This document shows, in pieces, positions 4,822 through 46,314 of a stretch of DNA of 64,000 nucleotides. Source of the DNA: a virus; IMG/VR virus record IMGVR_UViG_3300045988_143356; one strand, written 5' to 3'. Made by a program: the position numbers and the translations under genes. Below the pieces are notes generated by a model, which worked only from the letters and a program-made list of their open reading frames with translations, had not been told where the DNA came from and made no database searches. Every line of letters starts with the position of its first letter. Positions within the stretch are counted from its first letter, which is position 1.

Positions 4822-4847
4822 ATTGTATGTTAAAAAATCAATAGGTT

Positions 4848-15204: not shown

Positions 15205-15236
15205 AAGGGCCGCCGTGAGGCGTCCCTTTCTTTTTA
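15205..15236. terminator. bidirectional rho-independent terminator
   Basis: AAGGGCCGCC-GTGA-GGCGTCCCTT stem (one mismatch) with GNRA loop, T-run on both strands, between convergent genes. Confidence 0.6.
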
Positions 15237-16766
15237 GCTCTGAATCGACTTTCCCGAAGCGTTGTTGTCAACCGGCGTCTTTTTCGGATTGGTCCCTTCC
15301 GTGACCGCCGTTGTGTTGTACTTTGCGGGGATTGAACTTTTAATTTCTAATTCATACTCCCATTCCTTCTGAATAGTCTCGTAGTCGTCGATGTGCGCCG
15401 TGCCGAGGTCCTCCATGGCGGCCTCCCTTGACTTTATCCTTGCGTACACTTGGTCGCACTCGTTTTTGACCAGCTCAGAGACGTTCTGCGGAAGCCAGAT
15501 GTTCTGCCCGACTGACACCTTGAGGCTCTCGTACCCGGCGATGTCGCCCTGAACCTTGCCGACAAGCGCCTTGAAGACGTTGACCATCTTCTTCACACCC
15601 TTGAAGAAGTACGGCCATGTGTTCTTGCACCACTGAATCTCCGGCGCGAAAAGAATCTTTATCGTCGTGCTGGAGTCCGATCCGGCCTTGAGGATGTCCG
15701 GCTCGACGAAGACCGACATTGTAGTCCTTACGATGTTGTTCCACAGCGTGTTGTGGTGTATGTCGGCGATGTTGCTCGCATCAGGCGGTGCGAGGAACTT
15801 GCCGTCGGCGTTCCGTAGGGAGTCGGCCGTGCCCTTCACGCCGATGGTCTTTCCCGCCATCTTGGAAGGCGGCAGGTTGACGATCTTCTCCGACTTCAGG
15901 AAGAGAATCGGAAAAGCGCTGTTTTTCAGCTCCTCGCCGAGGTACGAGCTTGCGTTCTCCAGTGACTCGATGCTGAGCTGCGCCGGTCCGGTAGGGATGT
16001 CGTCTATACGGAAATAAGTGCACTGGCATCTTCCGGCACCGGCCTGGTTCGCCTTGCGCAGTATCAGCGTGTAGCCGTCCTCGCTGCGCTCCCTCCCCAA
16101 AGTTTCCTCTTCCGGCAACTGCATCCATGTCTCCACGGACTCGCAAGTGAAGATGTCCACGGCGTCGCGGTTCTCGTACTTGTACTTCCTCGCCACGCAC
16201 TCGTGACCCTCCGCGTCAAGGAAAGGGAACAGCGTCGAGCCTTCCTCGTAGCCGTACACCTCGTACTCTATGCCGTCCTCGGTCTGGTACAGATAGATGG
16301 CTCCGTCTCCGGTGCGGAACACGCTTTTGACAAGAGCCGTCCACGCCGCCTCCTTCAAGCCGGTCATATCCATCTGCGAGCGGAGCACCTCGAAGCGTTC
16401 CTTGTCTTTCGTCTCGTTGGCCATCCAGAAGCCGTCTGACGCGAAGTGCGAGATCTTCTTGCCGATGATGCACTCCTGCAAGCCAAGGGCGACCGTCTCT
16501 ACGTCGTCGTAGCCGGTTATCCTCCACTTCGTCTTGCCGTTGGCGTCCTTCTCGTCCGTCGGGCCGTAGATGGCTCGCTTCGACATATACGGCGAGTTGA
16601 TGTTGTGCGCCGCCGGGGAAATCTCGTTGAGGAAATCGTCCTGGGTCATGAGCACCTGGTCACAGCCCCTCCCCGGCTTCATGTTCTGTCCTGCGGCGGT
16701 GTCCATCGCCACACGTCTTGTCCACTGCTTCTTCTTCGCAGGGTTGATGTAACTTGATACGTTCAT
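15234..16766 (-). CDS. portal protein
   Basis: 510-aa ORF directly downstream of the large terminase with a 4-nt overlap; size and position typical of SPP1-type portals. Confidence 0.7.
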   Translation of the reverse strand: MNVSSYINPAKKKQWTRRVAMDTAAGQNMKPGRGCDQVLMTQDDFLNEISPAAHNINSPYMSKRAIYGPTDEKDANGKTKWRITGYDDVETVALGLQECIIGKKISHFASDGFWMANETKDKERFEVLRSQMDMTGLKEAAWTALVKSVFRTGDGAIYLYQTEDGIEYEVYGYEEGSTLFPFLDAEGHECVARKYKYENRDAVDIFTCESVETWMQLPEEETLGRERSEDGYTLILRKANQAGAGRCQCTYFRIDDIPTGPAQLSIESLENASSYLGEELKNSAFPILFLKSEKIVNLPPSKMAGKTIGVKGTADSLRNADGKFLAPPDASNIADIHHNTLWNNIVRTTMSVFVEPDILKAGSDSSTTIKILFAPEIQWCKNTWPYFFKGVKKMVNVFKALVGKVQGDIAGYESLKVSVGQNIWLPQNVSELVKNECDQVYARIKSREAAMEDLGTAHIDDYETIQKEWEYELEIKSSIPAKYNTTAVTEGTNPKKTPVDNNASGKSIQS

Positions 16767-24309: not shown

Positions 24310-24608
24310 GCTCTGCCTTCGAGTCCTCGACGCACAACGAGCGAATCAAGAACGTTTACGGCAACTTCGGTTTCTGGTCGTGGCTGCGCTATTGGTACCT
24401 TGACTCGGCGAACCTCGTGACGATGTGGCTGATAGACAAGGGATATTACGATTACGACTACGAGAAGGAGGGTAAGCTGATAACGGTGTCGGGAACTCGC
24501 AAGTCAAAGACTGATGTTAACAATATTCTTCGTAACTTTGGACTGCCTGTTGAAGGCGAGGATTTACAATCATACATAATCAAGGAGGAACAAAAAAATG
24601 GCTGTTGA
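23782..24608 (+). CDS. tail assembly chaperone GT-like frameshift fusion
   Basis: -1 frame extension of about 103 codons (…GRQVGSAFESSTHNER…IKEEQKNGC) ends 11 nt inside the tape measure gene; track ORF 24417..24608 is its tail. Confidence 0.6.
24291..24297 (+). other. -1 programmed ribosomal frameshift heptamer A_AAA_AAG
   Basis: Zero-frame codons AAA(24292) AAG(24295) preceded by A24291; the -1 frame stays open from here to 24608. Confidence 0.65.
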
Positions 24609-27600
24609 GATACCGGTAGTCATAGACATAGACAAGGCGTTTGACGACGCTATCAAGAAGCTGCCGTCGGCGATGCGCCCGTTGAAGAACACGATAGAGC
24701 AGCTTTCGCAGGAGCTGAACATAGCGCGTCAGATTATGGCGGAGGCTCCGATAGACAGCAAGGACTGGCAGGACGCGGCGAATATGGTAAAGGGGTTGTC
24801 GCAGTCTTTGGAAGTCGCATCCGACAAGATGCGGAGATTGGTAGCCAACGATGGCAGCATCAAGCAGATGACCGCCACCTTGGCCTCGCTGAATCGTAGG
24901 TGGGAAGAGATGGGATATATGCAGAAGTTCCAGAACGCTTCGCAGTTGTCAAGCGAGGCGGAGGCTTTGTATGCTGAATATAAAAGAATAACAAAGTCTT
25001 TGCAGCAGAACAAGACCCTTACACAGCTTTGGGCGGAAGAGCAGGCAAAAGCGGCGAAAGCCGCAGAGCGGCAGGCCGCTGCCACCAAAGCTGCGCAGGA
25101 CAAGGCATTCATGATGTCCTCCCCGGCGAACACGCTTGCGGGTTTGCGCAAACAGGAAACTCTACTGTCAGCCGCGATGGGGCAGGTTACTATTGGATCC
25201 GCAGCGTTCAGGGATTATGAGAACCGCCTGACAGCAGTGCGCAACAAGATAAAGTCAGCCACAAAGGAGCAGAAAACATATAACACTGCGTTGTCCGAAA
25301 GCCATTCGCGCCTTGGCACGCTGATAAAAAGTACCGTGGCGTACTTCTCTTTGCGCCAGGTTACAAATTTCCTGCGTAATATCCGTGCTGTCACCGCCGA
25401 GTTCGAGATGCAGCGTGTTGCCTTGGGAGGTATCATCCAGGATAGCGACAAGGCAAGCGAACTCTTCAAGCAGATAAAGGCCGCTGCAATCAAGTCGCCT
25501 TTTGAAATCAAGGATTTGGTCTCATACACGAAGCAGTTGTCCGCGTACCGGATAGAGACAGACCAGCTTTTTGAGACCACGCAGCGTCTGGCCGATGTGT
25601 CTTCCGGTCTTGGCGTGGATATGGGGCGTATCATACTCGCCTACGGCCAGGTCCGCGCTGCTTCGGTGCTTCGTGGAACCGAGTTGAGACAATTTACCGA
25701 GGCCGGGATTCCATTGGTGGAGCTTTTGGCAGAAAAATTCTCGCAGCTTTCCGGGCGAATGGTCAACACCGCCGAGGTGTTCGACCTTATATCGAAGCGT
25801 GCTGTGTCGTTCAAGATGATCAAGGAGATATTTGAGGATATGACCAACGCTGGCGGTATGTTCTATAAGATGCAGGAGAAACAGTCCGAGACGTTGCAGG
25901 GTAAGTGGATGAACTTGAAGGATTCCGTGTCCATTATGTATGATGAGATAGGAAACACGAAAGATATTCATACGGCTATGGAATGGATGCTATCTTTCGC
26001 GACCGCGTTGATGAATAACTGGCGCACCGTGGGGAAGGTGCTTGGCGGCGTGATAGCGTCTATGACGGCTTATAAAATAGCGGTGACAAATACCACGATA
26101 GCCATTAATGCGCAGACAGCCGCCAATGGCATAGCTCAAAAGATGGAATGGAGTCGCCAAATAGGTATGAGCAAGACCATATCACTCATATTCGGCGAGA
26201 CGGCTGCCAGGAAGATTCAGATAGCCTTGATGCGTACCTACGTCGCAGTCAAAGCCAAGGAGGTAGCGGCCACGAACCTTTTCACAAAGGCATTCTATAA
26301 GATGACCGCCGCCTTGCTGAAAAATCCTTACGCGCTTGCGATAGCGGGAATCACGGCTTTGGGCTACGGGTTGTATCAGTTGATGACAAATGCCAACAAG
26401 GCAAAAATAAGTGTTGATGATTTTGAGAAATCCTTGGAATCTTTCAAGCAGTCCAAGTCGCACGCCAAGGATATTGATGATTTATGCGCGGCTTATGACG
26501 AGCTTAATAAAAAGACGGACAAGACCGCCGAGGAGCAGAAAAAGCTCGAGCGCATAACTAAAGATTTAGCAAAGGCATATCCGTCCGCTGTCGCTGGTGT
26601 AGATGCGCAGACGGGGGCATTGAAGATTAACACCAAGGCTATCAAAAGCAATAACGAAGCTGTAAAAGAGGCTATCAAATTGGCGTTGACGCAAGATAAG
26701 ACAAGTGCGGAGGCAGAACTTGCCAAAAGGGAAGCGGAACGCGACAAGATAGCAAGAGAGTTGGAACGTGGTAAAGTAACACGTTTTGGGCCTTACAATA
26801 CGCAATATGAAGGTGATTTAACCGAGGAAGAGCGAGCTGCCAGAGGCCGTCGTATCACCGAGTTGGAAGCCGAAATTAAGCAATATTCAAACTTGGTTGA
26901 AGATGCGGAAAAACAATTGGAGGGGTATTCCGAAGAAGTGGGCGTTTGGCTTGACTTCTTTGATGACAAATGGCGCTTATCCCTCACCGGCTATTCATAT
27001 ACCTTGCAGAGCACCGGTCAGCGGGTCCGTGCCTTCACCAAAGAACAGATAGAGAATTTCACCTCGCTGAAAGACGCACTGGACGCCGCAGCGAAGGGCT
27101 ACAAGGAGCAGAAGGAGGCGGTCGAGTTCTATACGCACGCATACAACGCTGCCACGGGCGGCAAGAAAGACCAGATGAAGGCGGCTCTCGCTGACGCGCA
27201 GGCGCAGCTTGCCATGTACACGAAGATACTGACCGACAATGATGCCATGTATCTGACAGCGCAGAAAGGCAAGGGCGGAGCATCAAGTGACCCGTTTATC
27301 ATCCAGATAGAGAATCGCATCAAGTTCATGAAAGACTTCCAGAAGGGTTACGAGTCTCTTTTGAAGTATATGTCTTCCTCGGCTGCCTTGCAGAAAGAGG
27401 GCAGCATCATGCAGGGACGTGGTGTCGCCTTGGGCATAGACCCGTCTGAGCAGAAGCGTGCCGCCACTGACCTTTCTGGATGGCTCGAAGATTTGAAAAA
27501 GACGGTGTTCGCAGAGGCGCAAAAGAAGGGTGCTAAAGGTGATATTCTTAATTTTCTCGGTTTGAAAATCAACTCCGGTGTGCTCCGTGAGTATCAGTCC

Positions 27601-29832
27601 TTGATTCAGTCTATCTTTGACACAAAGACCGACATAGACACGTCGCAGATGTCGAAGAACTTTGACAAGGCGATAAAGCAGCTTTCCACCGAGTTAAAGA
27701 ACACCGAGGCGGCCCGTAACTTCTACAAGGACATCCTCGGCCAGACTGGTGATGAGCAGCTGGCGACTACGCTGACCGTATCGGTTTACGGCGACATCGG
27801 CAAGGATTTCAAGGACCGGATAAAGGCGCAGCTGGACAAGGCATTCGCGAGCCTTTCAAAGGCTGACCAGACACCGGAGATGAAGGCGGCGATAGACACG
27901 CAGGACTTCGGTTATTTGCTTTCCAATCTGGACAAGTTCTCGCAGGAGTGGCAGAAGGTGTTGCAGGAGGCGGCCAGCAGCTCTATCCAATACAACGCCA
28001 AGTGGCTGAAAGATTTGGTCTCTTCCTACGAAAAACACAAGACCTTCGAGGAGCGCATCACCGAGACAAAGCAGCGCGAGGCACAGAAACGTGTTGAGAT
28101 ACAGAAGTGGGAGGCGGAACAGATTGCGGCGATAGACAAGGACACGACCAAGACCGCCGAGGAGAAAACGGCTGCGAAAGCCAAGGTGAAGGCGACATCT
28201 ACACAGATGCAGGCCGCGTCAAGCAGTAAGGAAACTAAAGAGGTGTCTAATATTGAGATGGAGGCGTTGAAAGCGACGTATGAATGGACCAAGGCGTTCG
28301 AGGATATGGACAACGTTTCAACCACAACGTTGAAAAACCTTATCGCTCTGCTGACCTCGTATATTGACAAGTGGAAGGATTCAGGTGACGCACCGGAATC
28401 ACTAAAGGCAGCAGTCCAGGCGTTAGAGCAGGCACAGGCGCAGATTACGGAAAGGAATCCTTACCAAGGCGCGATAAAAGGCATAAAAGATTATATCAAG
28501 GCCAAGCAGACGGCAAACAGATTGGAGAAAGAGGGAAAGAAAGGAACGCAGGAGTATAAGGAAGCGCAAGATGCAATGCGCAAGGCTATGAAATCTACCG
28601 AGAAATCGGTAAATGATGTCGGCAACACTTTCAATACATTTTCTTCAATAGTAAGTTCGGTTTCTGATATTCTGAACCTTGACGAAATGTCCGACGGTGA
28701 GGCGGTACTGCAAGGTATCGCCGCCGGTCTTACTATGGTCGGTACTGCCCTCGTGTTCATCAATGCGATGTTTACCCTTTTGGAAACCAATCCTATTGTC
28801 CTCGCCATTTCCGCCATAATCGCCAGTGTAGCCGCCTTGGGTATGATAATGAGCAACCTGTCCACGGCAGGAGCCAACCGCGAGATAGAGAAACAGCAAC
28901 AGACCGTAGATGCGCTTGAAAAGTCTTACAAGCGATTGGAAAAGGCTATGGAGGATTCCTTCGGTTCTGATTACATCTATAACTATCAAGAGCAGATGAA
29001 GAACCTCCAGGCGCAGGCTGACGCTTATCAGAAGATGGCCGATGCCGAGCGAAGCAAAGGAAGAAAGGCGGATGACGACAAGATAAAGGAGTACGAGGAG
29101 AGTATGGATGACATACTTGAGAAAATGGACGACATGAAGCACCAGCTCAGCGAGTACTTCTCCGGCACGGATCTGACCTCGGCGGCGGAGGATTTTGCTA
29201 AATCTTGGATTGACGCTTACCGTGAGTTTTCCAGCACCACCTCGGCGATGAAGGAGAAGTTCAGGGAGATGATTGACAATATGGTGGTCAATTCGCTTGC
29301 CGGGCAGGTGATGCAGAATATATTAAAACCCGTCTTTGATGCCATTGACGAATATTCAAAGGACGGCGCTTTGACCGAGAAAGAGATTGCGAACATAGCT
29401 GCGATGTCTGTTGCCAAAACCGAGGAGATAAACACTGCTATGACCGCCTTGATGGAACGACTCACCGCCGCTGGTGTGAACATCCGTGCCACCGGCTCCA
29501 GTCTTTCCGGAATATCGAAGGACATAGCGGGTGCGTCCGAGGAGTCCATCAACGCTCTTGCTTCCGGCATCAACACGCAGAACTTCTACATGTCGTATAT
29601 GCCGAACATAGACCGCAACGTCGCCGCTATCCTTGTGGCGATACAAGGTGGGACTACTCCGAACACGGTTGCGGCTCCGCAGACCACCTCTGTCCAGTTT
29701 GGCGACGAGACGTTCCGCGGGCAGATGAGCAGGATAGACGAGAATGTCGCCGGAATCTACCAGATGATGCGCAGCGTGATTACTCCGAAGTCTGCAAACG
29801 TTAACACGCATTGTGTTGGCACAAAGGGCTAA
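24598..29832 (+). CDS. tape measure protein
   Basis: 1744 aa, long coiled-coil stretches plus hydrophobic segments; position after G/GT. Confidence 0.9.
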   Translation: MAVEIPVVIDIDKAFDDAIKKLPSAMRPLKNTIEQLSQELNIARQIMAEAPIDSKDWQDAANMVKGLSQSLEVASDKMRRLVANDGSIKQMTATLASLNRRWEEMGYMQKFQNASQLSSEAEALYAEYKRITKSLQQNKTLTQLWAEEQAKAAKAAERQAAATKAAQDKAFMMSSPANTLAGLRKQETLLSAAMGQVTIGSAAFRDYENRLTAVRNKIKSATKEQKTYNTALSESHSRLGTLIKSTVAYFSLRQVTNFLRNIRAVTAEFEMQRVALGGIIQDSDKASELFKQIKAAAIKSPFEIKDLVSYTKQLSAYRIETDQLFETTQRLADVSSGLGVDMGRIILAYGQVRAASVLRGTELRQFTEAGIPLVELLAEKFSQLSGRMVNTAEVFDLISKRAVSFKMIKEIFEDMTNAGGMFYKMQEKQSETLQGKWMNLKDSVSIMYDEIGNTKDIHTAMEWMLSFATALMNNWRTVGKVLGGVIASMTAYKIAVTNTTIAINAQTAANGIAQKMEWSRQIGMSKTISLIFGETAARKIQIALMRTYVAVKAKEVAATNLFTKAFYKMTAALLKNPYALAIAGITALGYGLYQLMTNANKAKISVDDFEKSLESFKQSKSHAKDIDDLCAAYDELNKKTDKTAEEQKKLERITKDLAKAYPSAVAGVDAQTGALKINTKAIKSNNEAVKEAIKLALTQDKTSAEAELAKREAERDKIARELERGKVTRFGPYNTQYEGDLTEEERAARGRRITELEAEIKQYSNLVEDAEKQLEGYSEEVGVWLDFFDDKWRLSLTGYSYTLQSTGQRVRAFTKEQIENFTSLKDALDAAAKGYKEQKEAVEFYTHAYNAATGGKKDQMKAALADAQAQLAMYTKILTDNDAMYLTAQKGKGGASSDPFIIQIENRIKFMKDFQKGYESLLKYMSSSAALQKEGSIMQGRGVALGIDPSEQKRAATDLSGWLEDLKKTVFAEAQKKGAKGDILNFLGLKINSGVLREYQSLIQSIFDTKTDIDTSQMSKNFDKAIKQLSTELKNTEAARNFYKDILGQTGDEQLATTLTVSVYGDIGKDFKDRIKAQLDKAFASLSKADQTPEMKAAIDTQDFGYLLSNLDKFSQEWQKVLQEAASSSIQYNAKWLKDLVSSYEKHKTFEERITETKQREAQKRVEIQKWEAEQIAAIDKDTTKTAEEKTAAKAKVKATSTQMQAASSSKETKEVSNIEMEALKATYEWTKAFEDMDNVSTTTLKNLIALLTSYIDKWKDSGDAPESLKAAVQALEQAQAQITERNPYQGAIKGIKDYIKAKQTANRLEKEGKKGTQEYKEAQDAMRKAMKSTEKSVNDVGNTFNTFSSIVSSVSDILNLDEMSDGEAVLQGIAAGLTMVGTALVFINAMFTLLETNPIVLAISAIIASVAALGMIMSNLSTAGANREIEKQQQTVDALEKSYKRLEKAMEDSFGSDYIYNYQEQMKNLQAQADAYQKMADAERSKGRKADDDKIKEYEESMDDILEKMDDMKHQLSEYFSGTDLTSAAEDFAKSWIDAYREFSSTTSAMKEKFREMIDNMVVNSLAGQVMQNILKPVFDAIDEYSKDGALTEKEIANIAAMSVAKTEEINTAMTALMERLTAAGVNIRATGSSLSGISKDIAGASEESINALASGINTQNFYMSYMPNIDRNVAAILVAIQGGTTPNTVAAPQTTSVQFGDETFRGQMSRIDENVAGIYQMMRSVITPKSANVNTHCVGTKG

Positions 29833-37078: not shown

Positions 37079-37088
37079 TATCTTTGCA
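37079..37088 (+). promoter_or_regulatory. candidate promoter -7 box TATCTTTGCA
   Basis: Third identical copy, 20 nt before ATG 37108 at the start of the lower-GC fibre cassette. Confidence 0.4.
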
Positions 37089-37107
37089 ACACTTGATATA
37101 TTGTAAG

Positions 37108-38220
37108 ATGGACAATTGTACTTGCATCTCAAGAGAGAGAGTTTCTATTGTATATGGCAATGATTTCACAATCGAGGCCCATGTCTCCGTTTACGATAAG
37201 GACGAAGGTATATATAAGCTGCTCGACCTTACTGGCGTGAAGGAATGTCAGATGCGTCTGGTCGGGACTTATCGCAAAGCCATCGGCAAAGACATTACAG
37301 TCACCGGGTCTAAGGTCACGGCTTTCTTTCCGGGCGGCTCCGTCGGAGTCGGCACTTACGGAGTTGAGATAACTTTTGTTGACTCGCTCGGCAAGGGAAG
37401 AATCTTTGAGCGCAACCTTATCGGTATAGTGTCAGCCAGCGGTGATGCAACCGTGGACAATATTATCGAGGGGGAGACCGGCGAGGGGCTGAACGTCACG
37501 GTCAATGTTTTAACCCGTACCGTGAGAATCGGCACGAGTGGGGGGTCTTGCGTTCCCGATTCGGCGCTTTCTGAGACCAGTGAGAATTGCGTGCAGAACA
37601 GAGTCGTGACAGGAGCCATAAGGGAGTTGCAGGACTACTGCTTCCCGACTTCACTTGAGGCTTCCATCTCGCCGTCTTCGGCAGAATGGACAGGTAACTC
37701 AGTAGAGGTCAGTGTATCTTTCAGGGTTCTCAGAAACTCTAAGCCAGTAGTAGCTGACACTGTCCAGATCCAGTTCAACGGCGAGACTAAGACCCTGGAG
37801 AATGTAGCGGAGGGCTCAGAGAAATTCACTCTCTCTACTCAGGGCTACAAATCTGGCTCAGTCACTGCTAAGAAGGGCAGTACTACCATAAAGAACTCAC
37901 CAAGGTCTATCAGTGCTAATCTTTATCTCCCAGTATATTATGGATTCTCTAAGGCCACCACAGGAAATGAGTTGACTATCACTTCACTGACTAAGGGAGG
38001 CTCTTCTCTCAATGGTACCAAGACTCTTAACAATGATGATGCTACTAAGTACTTGTGGCTCTGCGTCCCTAACACCATGTCGATCAACAAGGTTACATCT
38101 GGTGGTTTCGATGTTCCGTTCTTGGCTTCAGTAGAGGCTTCTACTCCACTGGGAACCTACAAGTGCTATCGAACTAAGGATCTTCCTGGTGCTGGCTCTA
38201 TGACCATTGTTATCTCTTAA
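37108..38220 (+). CDS. fibre-cassette structural protein
   Basis: ATG 37108 inside track ORF 37084..38220 (track start is TTG); Ser/Thr/Gly-rich beta-type sequence. Confidence 0.55.
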   Translation: MDNCTCISRERVSIVYGNDFTIEAHVSVYDKDEGIYKLLDLTGVKECQMRLVGTYRKAIGKDITVTGSKVTAFFPGGSVGVGTYGVEITFVDSLGKGRIFERNLIGIVSASGDATVDNIIEGETGEGLNVTVNVLTRTVRIGTSGGSCVPDSALSETSENCVQNRVVTGAIRELQDYCFPTSLEASISPSSAEWTGNSVEVSVSFRVLRNSKPVVADTVQIQFNGETKTLENVAEGSEKFTLSTQGYKSGSVTAKKGSTTIKNSPRSISANLYLPVYYGFSKATTGNELTITSLTKGGSSLNGTKTLNNDDATKYLWLCVPNTMSINKVTSGGFDVPFLASVEASTPLGTYKCYRTKDLPGAGSMTIVIS

Positions 38221-38233
38221 AACTTAGAATATC

Positions 38234-38590
38234 ATGGCAGATTATATCAAGATCTATGGCGAACTAAGACGACCCTTAGGGGGACAATATGTCACAGACT
38301 CAGATCAGATAAAGCACAAAAATGAGACCGTAAAAGAGGTTCTCGATAGACTAGACGGTGTCACCTACGTAGATGTCCCAGAGCTCGAGAACGATTACAT
38401 TGTTCAGGCAAGCGCATCTCACAAAGAGACTGTCTATACTATCGAAGTGGGAGCAACCATTCATGCTATCGTGGGTGACTCCACCATTAAATGGATGAAC
38501 GGAGAGGCTCCTGTAACTCAAGCTGATCGCATATACGTGGTCTCAGTGATCGGGTCTCTGGCCGTCTGGGGAGAATTTCCAAAAGCTTAA
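38234..38590 (+). CDS. hypothetical protein
   Basis: 118-aa ORF in the fibre cassette. Confidence 0.5.
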   Translation: MADYIKIYGELRRPLGGQYVTDSDQIKHKNETVKEVLDRLDGVTYVDVPELENDYIVQASASHKETVYTIEVGATIHAIVGDSTIKWMNGEAPVTQADRIYVVSVIGSLAVWGEFPKA

Positions 38591-38593
38591 GCT

Positions 38594-38773
38594 ATGAGTG
38601 TATTTAGAGCTCTGATGATGCACAAGCATCAGCCTCTGAGTGAGTTTATTAAACTTATTCCAGAGAACTTAGAATTTCCGAACCCAGAGAGCACTAAAGA
38701 TCTAACTATAGAATCTAATGCTCCATGGACTCTTGGAGTTAAATACAACGACGAAACACCTAACAAAGGATAA
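38594..38773 (+). CDS. small protein carrying the first half of a BACON-like domain (59 aa)
   Basis: Hand translation MSVFRAL…KDLTIESNAPWTLGVKYNDETPNKG; LTIESNxxWTL matches the C-terminus of 38804..40456. Confidence 0.35.
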   Translation: MSVFRALMMHKHQPLSEFIKLIPENLEFPNPESTKDLTIESNAPWTLGVKYNDETPNKG

Positions 38774-38803
38774 TTTATTAATTTCTTAAAAACCATTAAA
38801 AGT

Positions 38804-40456
38804 ATGGCAAAACCGAGTTGGATTAAACTGGGCAAGAGCTCAGGTTCCATGAACGATTCCACAACTGTTACCGCCAGTGAGTACACGGGGCGTCAGCAGA
38901 GAGGTGGAACAATCACTGCTAAAACAACTGGAGGTGCAACCGACACTACTTCAGTTTCGCAGGCCGGTAAGGCTGAGTTCATTAATGTGCCGACCAAGAC
39001 TTACAATGCCGCTGCAAAGGGTAGCAACTCTGACGGTTCTGACACCATTCAGATCACTGGTACCGCAAATACGGCAAACATCAAGGTGGCCGAGACTACT
39101 GGCAAGATTATCCCTGGGGCAGCCTACAAGATCCAAGTCAACGCAGTCAATGATGAGTCTTGGGATGGAAAGACTGACACTGGCATTGATGACGATCCGG
39201 GTAAGGATGCTCAGTTCACTTTCACTATCGACGTCAAGATCCCAGAGAACAAGACTGAAGCTGCCAGAACATTGGAGATCAAGCTTCAGAATGGTAACGG
39301 TGATGTGACCACAGAAGCTATCACTATCACTCAGGCCAAGGGTGTCAAGTCTTATGGTGCTGTTACCCTCACCGTGGGCACTTATCAGCAAATCCCAGCT
39401 GCCGGTGGTACTGTTGATGCTCCTTCTGTTTCCTTCTCACAGCCTTGGGGATGGAACGGTAAAACTTCGGGTGGGGGAACCATTACTACTGGTGGCACTG
39501 TTGCTTATGCAACTAAGACCGGATGGCCTTCAGCTCTTACCCTTGCCACAGCTACGGGTCAGGTATCTGCGGAATCTCGTACAACCGTGGTTGGAGACGT
39601 GATTTCAGGCACTGTAACTATCACTCTCAATGCTAATGGCAAGTCTGCTTCCAAAGAGGTTTCAGTTAGTCAGCAAGCCAATTCCGTTACTTATGCAGTT
39701 ACGGATGTGACACTGGCTGCTCCAGCTGACATCCCAGCTTCCGGAGGTTCAGTATCTTCTACTACGGTTACAGCCAAGGGTTCACAGACTTACACCTCGG
39801 GTTCAGTCACCAGTGATGTTGCCCTCACCAACGGCTCTGATGATTGTACCATCACCTTTAGTGAGGGAGTTTCAGCTGCTTCACTTGGTACAACTGTTAC
39901 CAACAGAACTAAGAAGGGCACTCTCACTGCTACGGTTACTTGGAAGACTACAGCTACCAAGTCCGCTTCTGTAGATGTATATCAGGCAGCCAACACCGCT
40001 ACTTACGGTGACATCACCTTTGACTCTGCCGTTGCCACAGAGGTTTCACTCAAGGCTGACGGTACCCAAAGCCGCAACATGACCGACAACTCCAGTGTTG
40101 GAGCCAAGCAGACTGTCACCTATACTTCGGGCGCCACCAGAACAGAGGCTAGCGCCACTGCTGCGGTTGTCTTCGATCTCAGTCCAAAGGTCAAGACCGC
40201 CGCAACTGGGTTTGCTCTCTCTTCTGACGGCATCGTCTCTGTTGGAGCCAATCCTACTACTGAGCCTCGTGGAGGCTTCGTTGTGACGGTTACTGTCACC
40301 GGCGAGGGCGACAAGACTGCCACCAGAGACTTCACGTTTAGTCAGCAGGGGTCTTCTTCCTACATCAACCTCACTCCAGAGAGCCTCACCTTTGTGGCTG
40401 CCGGAGAATCCAAGGAGCTCACTATAGAGTCAAACGACAGCTGGACTCTTGAATAA
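38804..40456 (+). CDS. BACON-like repeat tail fibre / receptor-binding protein 1
   Basis: N-terminus MAKPSWIKLGKSSGS…TGRQQRGGTI…VSQAG (second half of a BACON-like unit); C-terminus …LTFVAAGESKELTIESNDSWTLE (first half); paralogue of 40527..43331. Confidence 0.7.
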   Translation: MAKPSWIKLGKSSGSMNDSTTVTASEYTGRQQRGGTITAKTTGGATDTTSVSQAGKAEFINVPTKTYNAAAKGSNSDGSDTIQITGTANTANIKVAETTGKIIPGAAYKIQVNAVNDESWDGKTDTGIDDDPGKDAQFTFTIDVKIPENKTEAARTLEIKLQNGNGDVTTEAITITQAKGVKSYGAVTLTVGTYQQIPAAGGTVDAPSVSFSQPWGWNGKTSGGGTITTGGTVAYATKTGWPSALTLATATGQVSAESRTTVVGDVISGTVTITLNANGKSASKEVSVSQQANSVTYAVTDVTLAAPADIPASGGSVSSTTVTAKGSQTYTSGSVTSDVALTNGSDDCTITFSEGVSAASLGTTVTNRTKKGTLTATVTWKTTATKSASVDVYQAANTATYGDITFDSAVATEVSLKADGTQSRNMTDNSSVGAKQTVTYTSGATRTEASATAAVVFDLSPKVKTAATGFALSSDGIVSVGANPTTEPRGGFVVTVTVTGEGDKTATRDFTFSQQGSSSYINLTPESLTFVAAGESKELTIESNDSWTLE

Positions 40457-40472
40457 GACTGTCATAAGGTGG

Positions 40473-40490
40473 GAGGGGGCAAAACCCCTC
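40473..40490 (+). terminator. weak terminator-like hairpin between fibre genes
   Basis: GAGGGG-GCAAAA-CCCCTC followed by a poor T-tract. Confidence 0.3.
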
Positions 40491-40526
40491 TCATCTTCTA
40501 ATTTATTCTAAAAAAACAGAATCATC

Positions 40527-43331
40527 ATGGCAAAACCAAGTTGGATCACTGTAGTATCCGGGTCTACAGGAAGTGGCTCAGGGACAAGATCACTAAAAGC
40601 AAGCTCCCATACTGGAAGGTCAAGCAGATCAGGCTCTATCAAAGGAGTTACCTCTGGTGGCGCCTCTGATTCTGTAGTTCTCTCACAGGTTGGAGCTGGT
40701 GAGTTTATCAGGGTAGACAAGGCTTTCTATTTTGTTGCAGCTCTGGGTGGCACCGTGAAAATCACTGGCACCAGCAACTCACCATCTCTGAAGCTGACTA
40801 ATCACACCAGACCATATTTACTTTCCAACTTTGCCCTTAAGGTGAACGGGACTGCCTATTCATGGGATGGGAACGCCTCTCATCAGATATCGGGTGATCC
40901 TGGGGCATCTAGCTCTTACACTTTTGAGATCTCCTTTGACGTGGCAGAGAATCAGACAGAGAACTCCAGGGACAGCACTTTCAGGCTCCGCGATTCGAGT
41001 GATCCTAGGGTGTCTTCTAAAATCATTACTATTAGACAGACAGCAGGCGAGAAGACCTACGGCACTGCAAGTGTCAATATGAGATATTCTAATTGGAATA
41101 TAGGCGCAGAAGGAGGAGTTGCTACCCCTTCTTACGAATTTTCAATCCCTTGGGGATGGAATGGCAAAACATCTGGTGGTGGAACTCTTACCCAATCTAA
41201 TTCTTCCCATTCTGTAAAATACACCTATTATACTGATCCTCCTGGTTCTCCTTATAACTGGACCTTAAACGAGCAAACAGGAGAGCTAGTTATGGATTCT
41301 CTGGGAAAGGTCATCACTGATTCTTATAAGAAAGCCCGTATTAAGATAACCATTGTCGTTGATGGCCAGACATTGACTTCCACCGACTTTGTAAGACAGG
41401 ATCCTAATAAGGCTACATACACTTTAAGCTCTGCTTCTGTTTCATTAGATGATATCCCAGCATCGGGTGGCTCAGCTGACTCACCAAACTTTATCTCAGC
41501 TTCAGGCAAGATTGATTATTCTTCTGGAGAATCCGATACTCTTTCTATAACATCCTCAGATGTTATCATTACGTTGTCTAAAACTGTAAATGGCTCGAAT
41601 CTTGGTTCAACTGTTAAGGCCAGAACAAAACTTGACACAATTATAGCCACTATAACCTGGAATGGTTCCCAAATAACCCAAAGCATTGATGTGTACCAAC
41701 AGGCCAATCAGGTAACCTATTCATCAGTTAGCGCCACATCTTCTACTGTAATTATTCCAAAGACTGGTGGGGATGTGGATATAGCTGCCAAGGTATCCCC
41801 GAACCAGACAGCCACCTATACTTCTGGTGCTACTAGAACCACAACTGATTTTACCTATGAGTTTACATCAGTACCAAGTTTGGTAACTATTGATGAGCTT
41901 AATCTCAAGGCCACTGTTGGTAAGAACGTCACAGGTTTAACTAGAGACGACACTATTGAAATGAAGATAACCGGCGAGGGGAGCAAGTCAACTACAGCAT
42001 CTATATCTTATCATCAGGAGTCTTTAGTTATGCCTTCTTGGGATGTTCCTGCTACATTCCGTTTTGACAGTATTGGTCAAAGTGATCTATCTCCATCAGG
42101 CTTGGATTTGAATATATCTGCCCCAGATAATGTGGGTTGGACTATTGAAGGACCTTCTTATGTTGGCAACCGTTTAGTAAGTGGCGACCCGCTACCAATA
42201 AGTGGTACCGGAAATAAGAGCTTGTCTCTGGCACCTGATGTTAACACTTCTTCAGAGAGAACCTTTGATCTCGTTCTTAAAGCTTCTACTGGAGATGTGA
42301 TTGCCACTTGCAATTGTACACAGGATGCTTCTGCTGAACAAGCTCACACTCTCACTATTACTCATGAAGTTTGTGGTAAGTTGAATGTCGCTTCGGGCGA
42401 TATCACCATTTGTGTATCACCATTTGGAACTCTCAATGAGTTTAATGAAGACTATCTTGAATTAGGGACAACTGATTATGTAAATGATAGTAATCTTGGT
42501 CTATCAGTTGCGCACTCGGTTATAGAACAGCTATCTACTAAGCTTAACGTAGGTGATTGGATGGATTGCAACTATCTCTACTTCTGGGTTAAGAATGGAA
42601 GTACCCAAGCTAACGTAGTTCCAGTGTTTGGATCAACTTCTAAGACTCACTTTACCAATACTACTTTTGTGTTCTATGAGTATGACCTTATTACTTCTAA
42701 TCTGAAGAATCAGCTGTCAAACTTTGCAGCTTCAGGAAATACAGACTCGATAGATCTCTCAGAGACTTACGGTGTGAACCTGCTTTCTACCCGTAAGATG
42801 ACCCTTAAGGGCACATTCCCTGTGGCTTTTGCACAAGATCCTACAGGTTATGATATGGAAGCGTTCTTACGTCTTTATTACCATGCAGGAAGCGAGATAT
42901 GCTATGCTCCGGTGATCCCTATTCAACTCTTTGACAACATTGACACTTCAACCGATTCAAACGGGAATATAATTAAGAATATAAACTTCTATCGAGTTAT
43001 ACCATTGACTCAGTCAACTAATTATATAACCTTTAATGGATGGGAGATATTCTTGATTAACAATATTGATGTTTATAACGTAGTTGCAAAAGCCCATGAT
43101 GGACATATAAATTTAACCGCAGAGCCTATTTCAGCTAATATGAGTTTTGGATTCTCAGTAGGTACTGGTCCTGATAATGATACTGAGGTTACTGGTGATA
43201 AGTGGTTAGCTCCGTTTGATGAGGATGGTGATCAATCTTATTGGGGCTGGGATTTTGGATCCTTGGATAATGATTGTACGATGGATGTTAGTGCTGCTAC
43301 CGGTGAATCATGGATTGCTCTATTTAGCTAG
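40527..43331 (+). CDS. BACON-like repeat tail fibre / receptor-binding protein 2
   Basis: MAKPSWITVVSGSTGSGSG…GRSSRSGSI…LSQVG; shares PWGWNGKTSGGGT with fibre 1; divergent 500-aa C-terminal part. Confidence 0.7.
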   Translation: MAKPSWITVVSGSTGSGSGTRSLKASSHTGRSSRSGSIKGVTSGGASDSVVLSQVGAGEFIRVDKAFYFVAALGGTVKITGTSNSPSLKLTNHTRPYLLSNFALKVNGTAYSWDGNASHQISGDPGASSSYTFEISFDVAENQTENSRDSTFRLRDSSDPRVSSKIITIRQTAGEKTYGTASVNMRYSNWNIGAEGGVATPSYEFSIPWGWNGKTSGGGTLTQSNSSHSVKYTYYTDPPGSPYNWTLNEQTGELVMDSLGKVITDSYKKARIKITIVVDGQTLTSTDFVRQDPNKATYTLSSASVSLDDIPASGGSADSPNFISASGKIDYSSGESDTLSITSSDVIITLSKTVNGSNLGSTVKARTKLDTIIATITWNGSQITQSIDVYQQANQVTYSSVSATSSTVIIPKTGGDVDIAAKVSPNQTATYTSGATRTTTDFTYEFTSVPSLVTIDELNLKATVGKNVTGLTRDDTIEMKITGEGSKSTTASISYHQESLVMPSWDVPATFRFDSIGQSDLSPSGLDLNISAPDNVGWTIEGPSYVGNRLVSGDPLPISGTGNKSLSLAPDVNTSSERTFDLVLKASTGDVIATCNCTQDASAEQAHTLTITHEVCGKLNVASGDITICVSPFGTLNEFNEDYLELGTTDYVNDSNLGLSVAHSVIEQLSTKLNVGDWMDCNYLYFWVKNGSTQANVVPVFGSTSKTHFTNTTFVFYEYDLITSNLKNQLSNFAASGNTDSIDLSETYGVNLLSTRKMTLKGTFPVAFAQDPTGYDMEAFLRLYYHAGSEICYAPVIPIQLFDNIDTSTDSNGNIIKNINFYRVIPLTQSTNYITFNGWEIFLINNIDVYNVVAKAHDGHINLTAEPISANMSFGFSVGTGPDNDTEVTGDKWLAPFDEDGDQSYWGWDFGSLDNDCTMDVSAATGESWIALFS

Positions 43332-43419: not shown

Positions 43420-46314
43420 ATGAAAGCACAAGGATATCAGACTGTAACACGTTCAAGAGCGGGTAAAGACGGTGTATCGGCATTCAAGAGCGTGGTTTTC
43501 AAAAGAAGCAATGAAGATATAGATGCACCCGTAGGTGGTACGTATGATTCCCCGGTACCCTCCGGTTGGAGTGATGGTGTTCCGGGAGGCGAGGAAAAAT
43601 TGTGGATGTCAACAAGGATATTCACAAACACTGGAGGCGCACCGCAGCAGGCGGCATGGACAACGCCTTCCGTGGTAACAGACACGGCGGACATTGATTT
43701 CGAGTTCTCGGCTGCCGCGAGTAATCCTGGAAATCCTACAAGTTCACCGAAACTTTGGCACAATACCGCCACATCGAATGACGTGTGGATGGCCGTGCGG
43801 AAGAAGAGCAATGGTGTGTGGGGAGCATGGGAGGTGTCGAAGATAAAGGGCGATAAGGGCGAGGACGGGAAGTCTTTCTACACGTGGATAAAGTACGCCG
43901 ACAACGCAGACGGCGGCGGAATCAGCGACAACCCTGTGGCCGCCGACGGCACGCTTAAGAAATACATCGGCTTCGCGTACAACAAGACCTCGCCGACGGA
44001 GAGCAACGTGGCCTCGGACTATACGTGGGCGCTTTTCAAGGGCACTGACGGCACCGACGGCCTCCCTGGAAAGCCGGGCGACGACGGCACGACCTACTAC
44101 ACGTGGATAAAGTACGCCGACGCTCTGGGAAGCAACGGCTATCCTACCGAGATGTACGACACGGCCAAGGCAACGACGGAGTATATCGGCATAGCGGTGA
44201 ACCAGACGGAGCGTGCGGAGGGGACAGACCCGGCGGCGTACTCGTGGAGCAAGTTCAAGGGCGAGGACGGGAAGGGCATCGTCTCGCAGGTCGATTACTA
44301 CGCCGTGTCGGCTTCCAAAACGGAAGTGCCGACAAATTGGACACCGAACACGCCGCCGAGCATGACCGCGACGCTTCGCTACCTGTGGAAATACACGCTG
44401 ACCACGTTTACTGATGGCAACACCGTGCAGACTGCCCCTTGTGTGGTAGGCGTGTTCGGTGTAGACGGCCTGTCCTATCGATACTCGAAATGGGTCGCTG
44501 GCGTGGAGTACAGGAATGATAACAATCCATATTACCGCGATTCTAACGGGCAGGGTATTATTGACGTCGTTTATGTGAACGGTATAACCATGTATGACCC
44601 GAACAGTGACACCACCCCGCCTGCCGGGTATATCTGTCGAAAGACGCATACTTCCCTTGACACGGTGATATTCTCGTCAGAGGGTAACTGGACACAAGAA
44701 GACAATGTTTTCACCTCAGACACCATAACGGACAATAATGCGACATGGGCGAAAATCAAGTTCAAGACAACGGCGGCGAACACAAAGATCACGGTAAAGA
44801 TAACGGCTTCGTCGGAGGCGAATTATGATTGGGGATATGTGTGCGGCCTTGACGCTGATTTCAGCACGACGAGCTATCTTGCCAAGGTATCAGGAACAAA
44901 TACTCAAACAGTTGAGATAGCGGTGCCCAAACCGGGCGTGCATTTTTTCTATGTCGGTTATACGAAGGATGGATCCGGCTACAAGAACAATGACAATACT
45001 GTTGTTGAGATAATATCTGTATCACCGTCCCCTGTTCCGCTCGCCGTAGGTGAATATTGGACGCAGATGAACTCTATGGCACCTATTCTGACAGCTTTGG
45101 TGCTTGCTGACAGAATAAAAGCGAACGCCATTGATGTGGAGAGCCTCGCCGCGAACACCGCGTTCATCGACAACCTGACGGTAAACAAGCTGATGGCCGG
45201 GATAAAGAACGGACAGAGGATTGAGATAACGCCTGATAAGAAATCCATCGACATTTATAATTCCGACGGCACTTTAGCCTCCGTGTTAGAAGGCAATGAA
45301 TATACAGCAATATCGTCCTTATTCAGTTCGGTAACTTCGGGGGCCATCACGGTAACCGAAGAAAGCGGAACAAAACGAATGGATGGGGAGGATTTATTCG
45401 GTTCATCAACCCCGATTACTTCAGCGACGCAATTCTTGACACCTTCAAAAATAACAGTGGGAAGTGGAACACTTTCCATCGAACCTATTGTAACAATGAT
45501 GGGCGGAACCTATATCACTTCAATAGGGTTGTACCTATGCACTTATTCTGATGAAAATTGCACAAATAAGATATACTCTTCAGAAGTGCGTAGACTCCTA
45601 GCTAATAGTGAGTATAGTCAAAACACACAGACCTTAACCTTTTCTAATGGAACGGGGGTTGTTCCGGCTGGATGGACAAGGTTGGAGATAGTGGTGGTGT
45701 CCCATCAGATTGGTTTTCCTATATTGATATGCTCATGGACTGACATCAGTGACGTGACTTATACTTCTGATTTCTACGTCTCACGATACTTCGCAAATGG
45801 CTTATGCCTCGGCAGGAATCTGAACAACTATATTGCTATTTATAATAGTGGTTTGGTAGGGGGGATGAATTGCAGTATGGTGAATGGTGTTTACAGGTTT
45901 GACTTTGATGCCGACGGCATCTTTTTCAAAAGAAGTGCAAAGGAGGATAGAAAGAGACTTGCACCTAGATATGGGCTTCCTTTCGCCGCCCTAGCGGTGG
46001 GCACTATGCTTCTAAATTCCACTTCTCCGTCCATGGGAAATTACAGAACCGTTGATGGCTCAAATACTGGCATGTCCGTGTCCCGGGTTTCCAACGGCAC
46101 ATTCAAGGTCACGATACCGTCCACTTGGGGTAACCGATATATAGTACAACTCACGACATTGGGTAGGACTGACAGTGATAACCCAATGGGGGCATCAGTC
46201 AGTACCATTTCGACAGGATCATTCATCGTTGATACTATGAGCTTAAAGGGCACTTGGGTCAACGAGGCAAAGGTTATGTTTTTAATCACAGATTTGTATG
46301 ATTTCAATGGATGA
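43420..46314 (+). CDS. tail fibre protein with collagen-like G-x-x segments and internal repeats
   Basis: 964 aa; GDKGEDGKSFYTWIKYAD… and GTDGLPGKPGDDGTTYYTWIKYAD… repeat units. Confidence 0.7.
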   Translation: MKAQGYQTVTRSRAGKDGVSAFKSVVFKRSNEDIDAPVGGTYDSPVPSGWSDGVPGGEEKLWMSTRIFTNTGGAPQQAAWTTPSVVTDTADIDFEFSAAASNPGNPTSSPKLWHNTATSNDVWMAVRKKSNGVWGAWEVSKIKGDKGEDGKSFYTWIKYADNADGGGISDNPVAADGTLKKYIGFAYNKTSPTESNVASDYTWALFKGTDGTDGLPGKPGDDGTTYYTWIKYADALGSNGYPTEMYDTAKATTEYIGIAVNQTERAEGTDPAAYSWSKFKGEDGKGIVSQVDYYAVSASKTEVPTNWTPNTPPSMTATLRYLWKYTLTTFTDGNTVQTAPCVVGVFGVDGLSYRYSKWVAGVEYRNDNNPYYRDSNGQGIIDVVYVNGITMYDPNSDTTPPAGYICRKTHTSLDTVIFSSEGNWTQEDNVFTSDTITDNNATWAKIKFKTTAANTKITVKITASSEANYDWGYVCGLDADFSTTSYLAKVSGTNTQTVEIAVPKPGVHFFYVGYTKDGSGYKNNDNTVVEIISVSPSPVPLAVGEYWTQMNSMAPILTALVLADRIKANAIDVESLAANTAFIDNLTVNKLMAGIKNGQRIEITPDKKSIDIYNSDGTLASVLEGNEYTAISSLFSSVTSGAITVTEESGTKRMDGEDLFGSSTPITSATQFLTPSKITVGSGTLSIEPIVTMMGGTYITSIGLYLCTYSDENCTNKIYSSEVRRLLANSEYSQNTQTLTFSNGTGVVPAGWTRLEIVVVSHQIGFPILICSWTDISDVTYTSDFYVSRYFANGLCLGRNLNNYIAIYNSGLVGGMNCSMVNGVYRFDFDADGIFFKRSAKEDRKRLAPRYGLPFAALAVGTMLLNSTSPSMGNYRTVDGSNTGMSVSRVSNGTFKVTIPSTWGNRYIVQLTTLGRTDSDNPMGASVSTISTGSFIVDTMSLKGTWVNEAKVMFLITDLYDFNG

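Follow-up and report, generated by a model that had tools for sequence, protein, structure and literature searches.

BACON domains divided between consecutive genes in the tail-fibre region of gut phages, a candidate connector of separately encoded modules

Results

Consecutive genes appear to encode the two parts of one BACON domain

We analysed a 64,000-nucleotide (nt) stretch of viral DNA (IMG/VR record IMGVR_UViG_3300045988_143356; this whole stretch is called the window), in which three consecutive plus-strand open reading frames (ORFs) lie in the tail-fibre region: ORF59 (59 amino acids [aa]; 38594..38773), fibre 1 (550 aa; 38804..40456) and fibre 2 (934 aa; 40527..43331). Profile and alignment comparisons show that a BACON domain, a small domain of the sugar-binding type, is divided at each junction: the C-termini of ORF59 and fibre 1 hold its first part, and the N-termini of fibre 1 and fibre 2 its second. 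The C-terminal part of one protein (C-half) and the N-terminal part of the next (N-half) probably reconstitute a single BACON domain in trans, which would serve as a generic connector of separately encoded modules; we give this reading a probability of about 0.6.

The coordinates and sequences of the three ORFs agreed with those given in an earlier note on this DNA. ORF59 ends with ...KDLTIESNAPWTLGVKYNDETPNKG and carries the first half of a BACON domain at residues 16-47 (38639-38734; 61.5 bits with a hidden Markov model [HMM] of the C-half), followed by a short variable tail. After an A-rich spacer of 30 nt (38774..38803), fibre 1 starts with MAKPSWIKLGKSSGS; its residues 1-59 (38804..38980; N-half HMM, 104 bits) represent the second half of the domain, and its residues 517-550 (40352..40453; C-half HMM, 59.7 bits) are again a first half, ending with ...ELTIESNDSWTLE. 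Beyond a 70-nt spacer, fibre 2 starts with MAKPSWITVVSGSTGSGSG; a second half spans its residues 1-60 (40527..40706; N-half HMM, 89 bits) and no C-half is present.

Two Pfam profiles describe the domain, namely, PF19190 (BACON_2; 94 profile positions) and the shorter, older model PF13004 (BACON; 61 positions). Alone, the fibre 1 N-terminus matched only positions 42-93 of PF19190 (31.1 bits) and the fibre 2 N-terminus only positions 42-94 (15.3 bits); the C-halves alone matched neither profile. Joining the fibre 1 C-terminus to the fibre 2 N-terminus extended the PF19190 match to positions 2-94 (30.5 bits), and joining ORF59 to the fibre 1 N-terminus gave positions 6-93 (38.3 bits). Fibre 1 and fibre 2 thus lack a full-length BACON match within a single polypeptide and give an end-to-end match once the upstream C-terminus is joined to the downstream N-terminus; further N-half proteins likewise matched PF19190 partially. 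This comparison of joined and single halves had been proposed as a check in the earlier note, and it bears out the claim made there that a BACON unit is cut across the stop/start junction at both places. As a chance control, the fibre 2 N-half was placed behind five unrelated C-termini from the window or behind three shuffles of the true C-half. These eight controls scored 13.7-19.2 bits, compared to 30.5 bits for the true join; in other words, the true fibre 1 C-half added ~15 bits to the BACON_2 score and the controls -1.6 to +3.9 bits.

The joined sequence was colinear with residues 35-119 of a solved BACON domain (PDB 8VA4), with a one-residue gap at the junction. On this 85-residue domain PF19190 spans residues 3-85 and PF13004 only residues 28-85. 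The fibre 2 N-half covers positions 8-60 of the 61 positions of PF13004, and this near-full match does not indicate a complete domain, since PF13004 omits the first strands of the solved structure. The suggestion that the N-terminal segment is a complete domain in itself, which would have told against a split, is thus not borne out by either profile.

The cut falls in the BACON loop that links the 'SN..W' strand to the 'SW(I/L)' strand; ~34 residues from the start of the domain belong to the upstream protein and the remaining ~55 to the downstream protein. In continuous BACON repeats of other proteins, the same region reads ...ITSNTSWTVS-ESLSWLSVSPASGSNNG... The tryptophan-to-tryptophan (W-to-W) distance from fibre 1 to fibre 2 is 9 residues, compared to 8-9 in continuous repeats. 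From ORF59 to fibre 1 it is 20 residues, or 14 in the 53-aa variants of ORF59, owing to the additional tail that follows WTLG in ORF59. The normal spacing reported in the earlier note therefore holds for fibre 1/fibre 2 and not for ORF59/fibre 1. By sequence class the joined halves are ordinary BACON, with the same conserved residues and spacing as canonical domains. We had considered the terminal halves as a subfamily apart from ordinary BACON and discarded this idea, as other proteins, with continuous BACON repeats, scored 25-41 bits with the C-half HMM at the first halves of these repeats.

The cut is conserved across phage lineages

HMMs made from the two halves were scanned over a first set of loci and then, with relaxed thresholds, over this set and a second one (loci are designated by L numbers). 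All C-half matches in the first set were found at the C-terminus of an ORF (94/94). With relaxed thresholds, all 131 strong C-half matches (at least 25 bits) were terminal, and none was internal in phage loci. Altogether, 47 distinct C-half to N-half junction sequences were collected. A small ORF, fibre 1 and fibre 2 were present in this order and cut alike in 33 close relatives (94-98% identity) and in one relative at 73% (L032, which equals L083). Moreover, a large family of homologues at 45-49% identity had identical boundaries, the inspected members starting with MAKP(S/K/N)WI and ending with SNDSWTL(S/E) before the stop. These homologues lie on ~100-kb crAss-like contigs, recognised by the Crass_capsid, ring and auxiliary capsid protein families, and form gene chains with the same ends, in which the small ORF has 49-52 aa and always carries a C-half only.

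The chains differ in their composition. In L088, a 148-aa protein and the small ORF are followed by a 417-aa PEGA-repeat protein with a C-half, a 214-aa protein with both halves, a 222-aa protein with an N-half and a 554-aa protein with both. L089 and L050 have the small ORF, a 532-aa protein (C-half), a 554- or 555-aa protein (both) and a 170- or 172-aa protein (N-half), and L085 has the small ORF, a 314-aa protein (N-half) and a 546-aa protein (both). The four-gene chain of L165 comprises proteins of 282 aa (C-half), 1011 aa (both halves, with ten Flg_new repeats between them), 227 aa (both) and 190 aa (N-half). Thus, the same termini enclose unrelated middle domains, including immunoglobulin (Ig)-like domains, PEGA/PF25641 repeats and Flg_new repeats. 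The cassette of small ORF and fibre 1 is shared, at 45-49% protein identity, by the long-tailed window phage and crAss-like podophages (L050, L085-L093); its occurrence in unrelated lineages implies horizontal transfer.

An exhaustive HMMER profile search over 1.84 billion representative proteins gave a similar picture. Among the best 148 sequences, which we looked at, 28 began with the N-half, either at the first residue or a few residues from it, and a C-half was also found at the end of 13 of these 28; the remainder were large tandem-BACON proteins that were matched internally.

An alignment of 44 homologues revealed invariant residues in both halves: M1, W6, G14, T28-G29-R30 and R33 in the N-half, where K3 and P4 were conserved in at least 90%, and P525, F530, G534, S543, D545, W547 and T548 in the C-half. 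Between the window and L083 (73% identity), the ratio of nonsynonymous to synonymous substitution rates (dN/dS) was ~0.08 for fibre 1, with synonymous sites saturated. The proportion of nonsynonymous differences (pN) for the same pair was 0.15 in the N-half, 0.17 in the middle and 0.20 in the C-half. For ORF59, dN/dS was 0.33 over 50 codons against the same relative. Given the low dN/dS, the invariant residues and the intact ORF59 of the relatives (see below), the sequence comparisons indicate that both halves are under purifying selection and are neither random truncations nor decaying scars. The earlier note had offered scars as one reading, which is refuted by halves that are as conserved as the remaining protein at 45-73% identity; random truncation of the C-terminal halves, named there as a finding that would speak against a split domain, is likewise incompatible with the same cut in 47 junctions under purifying selection.

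A related explanation is that the half-domain ends serve only as boundaries or micro-homology for cassette exchange, with no docking. Indeed, the similarity between L088 and L085 breaks off precisely where the small ORF has its stop codon and returns ~34 nt before the ATG of the fibre 1-type gene, a 44-nt island of 86% identity is common to the 5' ends of otherwise unrelated N-half genes, and other N-half genes replace fibre 2 in close relatives. Exchange of cassettes between phages, also suggested in the earlier note, therefore does occur exactly at these gene boundaries. The idea of a hot-spot formed by a DNA repeat found no support within the window genome, as its two junctions have no nucleotide similarity to each other. 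In addition, the conservation is at the protein level, with saturated synonymous sites and low pN as above, and recombination does not need a beta-sandwich that is cut at a loop with normal W-to-W spacing. We consider it very improbable that the ends are recombination linkers and nothing else. Cassette exchange looks like a consequence of a compatible connector and not the reason for it.

The halves are translated separately, and one natural fusion joins them seamlessly

The stop codon at the junction was TAA in 46 of the 47 cases, the downstream ATG lay in frame 0, 1 or 2 in 22, 14 and 11 junctions, respectively, and spacers ranged from 2 to 208 nt. Within the window clade, ORF59 and fibre 1 were 30 or 45-48 nt apart, compared to 60 nt in L083. 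All three frames were seen among relatives, even near-identical ones, so that the shared frame of ORF59 and fibre 1 seen in the window is not conserved. A terminator-like scan detected a 13-bp G+C-rich hairpin with a T-rich tail (40466..40497, plus strand) in the spacer between fibre 1 and fibre 2. This element, with a folding energy of -27.7 kcal/mol (z = -3.8; none of 200 shuffles folded as well), resembles a terminator or an attenuator, and equivalent spacers of the crAss-like locus L050 hold similar hairpin and T-run elements. No conserved frame relation or recoding signal for programmed read-through, frameshift or bypass was found across the 47 junctions.

Joining of the two halves during translation, by read-through, frameshifting, bypassing or stop-codon reassignment, is scarcely credible on these data. 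It is true that ORF59 and fibre 1 share a frame in the window with a single TAA between them and that recoding of stop codons (TAG, TGA) occurs in crAss-like phages. Against this stand the TAA stops, the mixed frames, the variable spacers and the strong hairpins with T-runs in some of them (window, L050), as well as the conserved Met-Ala-Lys-Pro start behind an A-rich leader. The stops, frames, spacers and spacer hairpins thus indicate that the halves are made as separate polypeptides, and they exclude read-through, frameshifting and recoding as the normal state.

One natural fusion was found. P0200 (920 aa; L220, 6001-8763), encoded on a 28.7-kb crAss-like contig, consists of a PEGA-repeat protein fused to a fibre 1-type protein. 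At its junction, ...EISINSNSNWEFD (also written ...INSNSNWEFD) is directly followed by MAKPSWITLDKSSG..., with no stop, no spacer and no inserted sequence; the corresponding DNA is AATTGGGAATTTGAT followed by ATGGCAAAACCAAGTTGG. The 94 residues over this junction matched BACON_2 positions 2-93 (36.4 bits). Hence the search for relatives with a continuous junction, proposed in the earlier note, yielded a protein that is the exact sum of the two halves, in one contig from one sample. Before HMMER retrieved P0200, a word-indexed protein search with the joined 94-aa query had scored 14 candidates, none of which spanned both halves, a search whose recall is too weak to establish absence.

ORF59 consists of junction elements only

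ORF59 is made up of a 13-residue N-terminal peptide (MSVFRALMMHKHQ; 38594-38632, plus strand), the C-half and the short variable tail, that is, of junction elements only. It was intact, as a 53- or 59-aa variant, in all 24 relatives in which the region is present, and its homologues of 49-52 aa in crAss-like phages are called as genes there.

ORFs that start with M-x-x-(F/M)-R-x-L-(L/M/K) each directly follow a protein with one particular C-terminal domain, as observed in 27 distinct pairs from three families. In these pairs the upstream C-terminus reads ..W(M/Q)(N/D)G..P....(V/I)(V/I).(V/N)....A(V/I)(W/G)(G/V).F, and the gap to the next ORF is -4 to +15 nt. We found no exception to this pairing among the loci examined, including the 118-aa ORF upstream of ORF59 in the window (38234..38590, plus strand; C-terminus ...GDSTIKWMNGEAPVTQADRIYVVSVIGSLAVWGEFPKA; junction type A), a protein that matched no Pfam or PHROG family. 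ORF59 may therefore link the 118-aa protein to fibre 1 as a putative two-ended adaptor.

This second junction signature (window 38234-38632, L050 5735-6333, L074 11272-12572) covers ORF59, the small ORFs of crAss-like phages and a 168-aa protein starting with 'MGLMRKLMMGC'. Conversely, proteins with the C-terminus ..W.(N/D)G..P....VVSV...LAVWG.F always had such an ORF next to them at this distance. A possible third signature was observed at window positions 37084-38260, where a 378-aa protein ends with ..GTYKCYRTKDLPGAGSMTIVIS and the next one starts with MADYIKIYGEL, and in the distant locus L043 (681-3500), where a 922-aa protein ends with ..GSYKCYRTEGALKAGNFNFVIG and the next one starts with MAEIPIYGTL.

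Fibre 1 and fibre 2 are paralogous proteins with a variable distal part

The AlphaFold2 model of fibre 1 was an all-beta string of domains (mean predicted local distance difference test [pLDDT] score, 88.5; predicted template modelling score, 0.43). Its top Foldseek matches in the PDB were protocadherin EC1-5 and RTX-adhesin repeats. By its model, fibre 1 is closer to an adhesin than to a trimeric tail fibre, and the protocadherin EC1-5 matches suggest approximately five Ig-like domains. The name 'fibre' taken over from the earlier note is thus loose for what is modelled as a cadherin/RTX-adhesin-like string of Ig-like domains.

Residues 1-541 of fibre 2 were colinear with the whole of fibre 1 (BLASTP, 35% identity, E = 1e-65). 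The alignment stops at WTLE versus WTIE, and the fibre 2 chain runs on beyond this point. A continuous BACON-like domain at fibre 2 residues ~505-600, around the point where fibre 1 ends, is a mere candidate from motifs recognised by eye; Pfam and local HMMs gave no significant match there. In close relatives (94-98% identity; strains L001, L033, L052-L084, L070 and L074 were compared), fibre 2 had 701, 706, 910, 921 or 932-935 aa, and its distal part is strain-variable. Some strains have in its place an 80-82-aa protein with an N-half only (MALPDWLRISPVSGKG...), which in the loci examined for this (L070, L074) is followed by genes of ~260 and 168 aa.

The halves as possible autonomous units or possible partners within fibre 1

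Several observations limit the case for reconstitution in trans. In AlphaFold2 monomer models, the C-half of fibre 1 kept the same two strands when the N-half was left out, with pLDDT dropping modestly from ~84-88 to 75-86, and by these models the C-half may pack on its own neighbouring domain. The comparison lends no support to pairing within one fibre 1 chain and speaks neither for nor against pairing in trans. The N-half spans nearly all of the short PF13004 model, which makes a stable truncated domain conceivable. In addition, L088 has four C-halves versus three N-halves in the stretch examined. L146 (fibre-gene strand, 3658-5760) has three consecutive N-half proteins (225, 220 and 228 aa) and, in the 10.8 kb available, one weak C-half only (..DTQDSVEWTVE before the stop); L146 is either an exception to the expected pairing, or its donors are encoded elsewhere. 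Finally, the seamless fusion P0200 is known from one contig and one sample. A rule that C-halves equal or outnumber N-halves at each locus was true for the window, L083, L085, L088 and L089 and was dropped, being broken by the available stretch of L146.

These observations would fit halves that are autonomous: the N-half of ~55 residues would be a stable short BACON-like unit, the C-half of ~34 residues a hairpin on its own preceding domain, the proteins would attach to the virion independently, and the likeness to one domain would stem from an old gene fission. The C-terminal strands are modelled fairly confidently and unchanged without the N-half, the N-half matches PF13004 as described, and N-half proteins of L102, like those of L146, have no adjoining strong C-half donor. 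We nevertheless regard autonomous halves as unlikely. PF13004 omits the first strands on the solved domain, and the invariant C-half residues P525, F530, G534 and W547 fit one buried beta face, with an alternating hydrophobic pattern visible by eye. Nor do autonomous halves account for unrelated proteins that end and start at the same loop, for a 49-59-aa protein of C-half and junction peptide that is kept from long-tailed to crAss-like phages, or for a viable seamless fusion.

Alternatively, the C-half of fibre 1 could complete its own N-half, closing a ring, or that of another fibre 1 copy, giving a homopolymer, and neighbouring genes would not encode partners. Both halves indeed occur on fibre 1-type proteins, L085, L088, L091 and L092 have no N-half gene after the fibre 1-type gene, and a join of the two halves of fibre 1 itself, C-half first, gave the best BACON_2 score (46.1 bits), a value that mainly reflects additive half-scores. 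Such self-completion appears quite improbable to us, since proteins with a C-half only (ORF59 and the PEGA-repeat protein) and with an N-half only (fibre 2 and the 82-, 170-, 222- and 314-aa proteins) occur in the same loci and need partners. Moreover, the extended domain-string model makes ring closure unlikely, and the modelled C-half was barely altered by removal of the N-half.

Genomic context of the cluster

Two genes of the window mark a long-tailed phage: an SPP1-type portal protein is encoded at 15234-16766 (minus strand), and a tape measure protein (TMP_3) at 24598-29832. The closest deposited relatives of the portal are those of Bacteroides, Parabacteroides and Phocaeicola phages, at 24-30% identity. 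Nucleotide and protein searches of deposited phage genomes gave no match to the region or to fibre 1, and ORF59, fibre 1 and fibre 2 had no match in PHROGs. The split-domain cluster lies in the tail-fibre region, immediately upstream of a 964-aa protein (43420-46314) with PHROG tail and host-range matches. This protein has collagen-like G-x-x runs and a repeated 'YTWIKYAD' motif, and its gene contains a 301-aa antisense ORF (43744-44649) that is probably spurious.

Some further observations concern neighbourhoods of related genes. In L094-L099 (e.g., L097 13470-14579 and L098 4333-5442), giant proteins of 1470-2186 aa share internal domains with fibre 1 and lie beside ORFs of 369-395 aa that carry a C-terminal CPQCG...NAALNI motif and resemble TnpB/IS605-family transposon proteins. 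A GIY-YIG/NUMOD homing-endonuclease gene lies among the crAss-like structural genes of L050 (676-1368), a few kb upstream of the fibre cluster.

Discussion

In the connector that we propose, a separately translated C-half and N-half would form one non-covalent BACON domain, by which modules would be strung together head-to-tail as a composite fibre or adhesin. The physical pairing of the halves, the chain order and the attachment point on the virion are inferred from sequence. In the window, the likely chain would run from the 118-aa protein (38234-38590) via ORF59 to fibre 1 and fibre 2. ORF59 would act as an adaptor whose N-terminal peptide docks on the 118-aa protein and whose C-half docks on fibre 1. 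Fibre 1, having both connector ends, would be an extender, and fibre 2 a terminator that carries variable distal domains. More generally, proteins with a C-half only would start a chain, those with both halves would extend it and those with an N-half only would end it. The order of the chain would be set by the ends that each protein has, and whole genes could be swapped without breaking assembly.

The partners found next to each other vary by lineage: the C-half upstream of a fibre 1-type N-half is of the ORF59 type or the PEGA-repeat type, and the N-half downstream of an ORF59-type C-half is of the fibre 1 type or the 314-aa type. Because these partners interchange between lineages, the connector appears to be generic and not pair-specific. 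The earlier note had envisaged reconstitution in trans as an ordered docking mechanism. The conserved cut, the purifying selection, the seamless fusion and the adaptor mini-protein favour the reconstitution itself, and the 'ordered', pair-specific element of that idea gives way to a generic connector. A bolder version, which we put forward as a speculation that is rather doubtful in full, is that unrelated gut-phage lineages share the split BACON domain as a universal, promiscuous plug-and-socket. Proteins with both halves would then form open-ended chains like pilus rods; those with a C-half only (ORF59, the PEGA-repeat protein) would be anchored on the virion and initiate a chain, and those with an N-half only (fibre 2) would terminate it. 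The ratios at which the proteins are expressed, with the intergenic hairpins as candidate determinants, would tune how long the chains are and what they contain, and adhesin or receptor-binding modules would be exchanged between phages by whole-gene swaps.

Chaperone-usher pili assemble by donor-strand complementation and exchange, in which an incomplete Ig-like subunit is completed by strands of the next subunit. The arrangement proposed here would be similar in that a sandwich is completed in trans and that adaptor, rod and terminator subunits are held together non-covalently, as an ordered fibre. It differs in that the donated piece has ~34 residues (two strands in AlphaFold2) instead of a single strand and that the donor is a C-terminus and not an N-terminal extension; here the first ~34 residues of the acceptor domain are missing, whereas in chaperone-usher pili the final G strand is missing and an N-terminal extension donates. 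Assembly would also be cytoplasmic here, between different gene products with unrelated cargo domains and by an interaction suggested by sequence. No chaperone or usher families were detected among the cluster proteins scanned, a subset of the window ORFs. Type V pili of Bacteroidota (FimA/Mfa1) polymerise by C-terminal strand exchange. As proposed here, C-terminal strands of one subunit enter the next, and the host phylum is the same; these pilins, however, depend on lipoprotein export and on proteolysis that removes an N-terminal strand, and they have a two-domain fold of their own; nothing points to a signal peptide or to cleavage in the split BACON proteins. By analogy, the split BACON domain would work like donor-strand complementation and type V strand exchange, and it is not a member of either system, since the donated piece, polarity, fold and accessory machinery differ.

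Engineered split Ig-like domains are known from SpyTag/SpyCatcher. Products of naturally fractured genes are reported to be rejoined at the protein level by split inteins (PMC2677866). In these cases, as proposed here, one fold in two pieces is reassembled after translation; unlike them, the phage proteins give no indication of isopeptide or intein chemistry, and the split would serve to build a fibre from several proteins, not to restore a single one. Intein/Hint families were not matched when ORF59, fibre 1 and fibre 2 were scanned with Pfam.

Canonical BACON domains (PF13004, PF19190; e.g., the crAssphage tandem-repeat protein, PMC6949934) lie within one polypeptide, whereas here a stop, a spacer and a start are placed in the inter-tryptophan loop. 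BACON/Ig-like 'modular adhesins' of crAss-like and long-tailed Bacteroidota gut phages have been proposed in 2026 to bind mucus or epithelium (PMC13370021), and the structural atlas of crAss001 describes the head-fibre protein gp29 (PMC10172136). These are the same kinds of proteins in the same phage groups. Term searches of PMC6949934, PMC10172136 and PMC13370021 gave no passage on a domain that is divided between genes, and the literature searched, whose coverage was incomplete, held no earlier account of a split BACON domain or of strand complementation in phage fibres. PF25641, the PEGA-like beta-sandwich of the gp29 C-terminus, matched proteins of L050 and L088 and P0200 at 122-131 bits with 3-4 repeats; Pfam did not detect it among the window proteins scanned. 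In a BLASTP alignment of gp29 with the 532-aa protein of L050, only gp29 residues 49-118 aligned. The comparison thus gives no sufficient basis for calling the crAss-like partner protein a head fibre: the repeat domain alone matches gp29, with no detectable similarity to its capsid-binding N-terminus (residues 1-58).

If the halves do reconstitute, phage fibres and adhesins would have a natural 'split-domain' principle of assembly, present in the most abundant phages of the human gut. As a direct prediction, a peptide of ~34 residues and one of ~55 should together make up a single domain. An annotation rule would follow as well: small or truncated-looking ORFs that are now orphan partial BACON matches would be read as parts of one fibre. 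Such a compact, genetically encoded connector could be of use for engineering the host range of phages or for display. For the phages themselves, it would explain how mucus- and host-binding modules are mixed and matched across distant lineages without breaking virion assembly.

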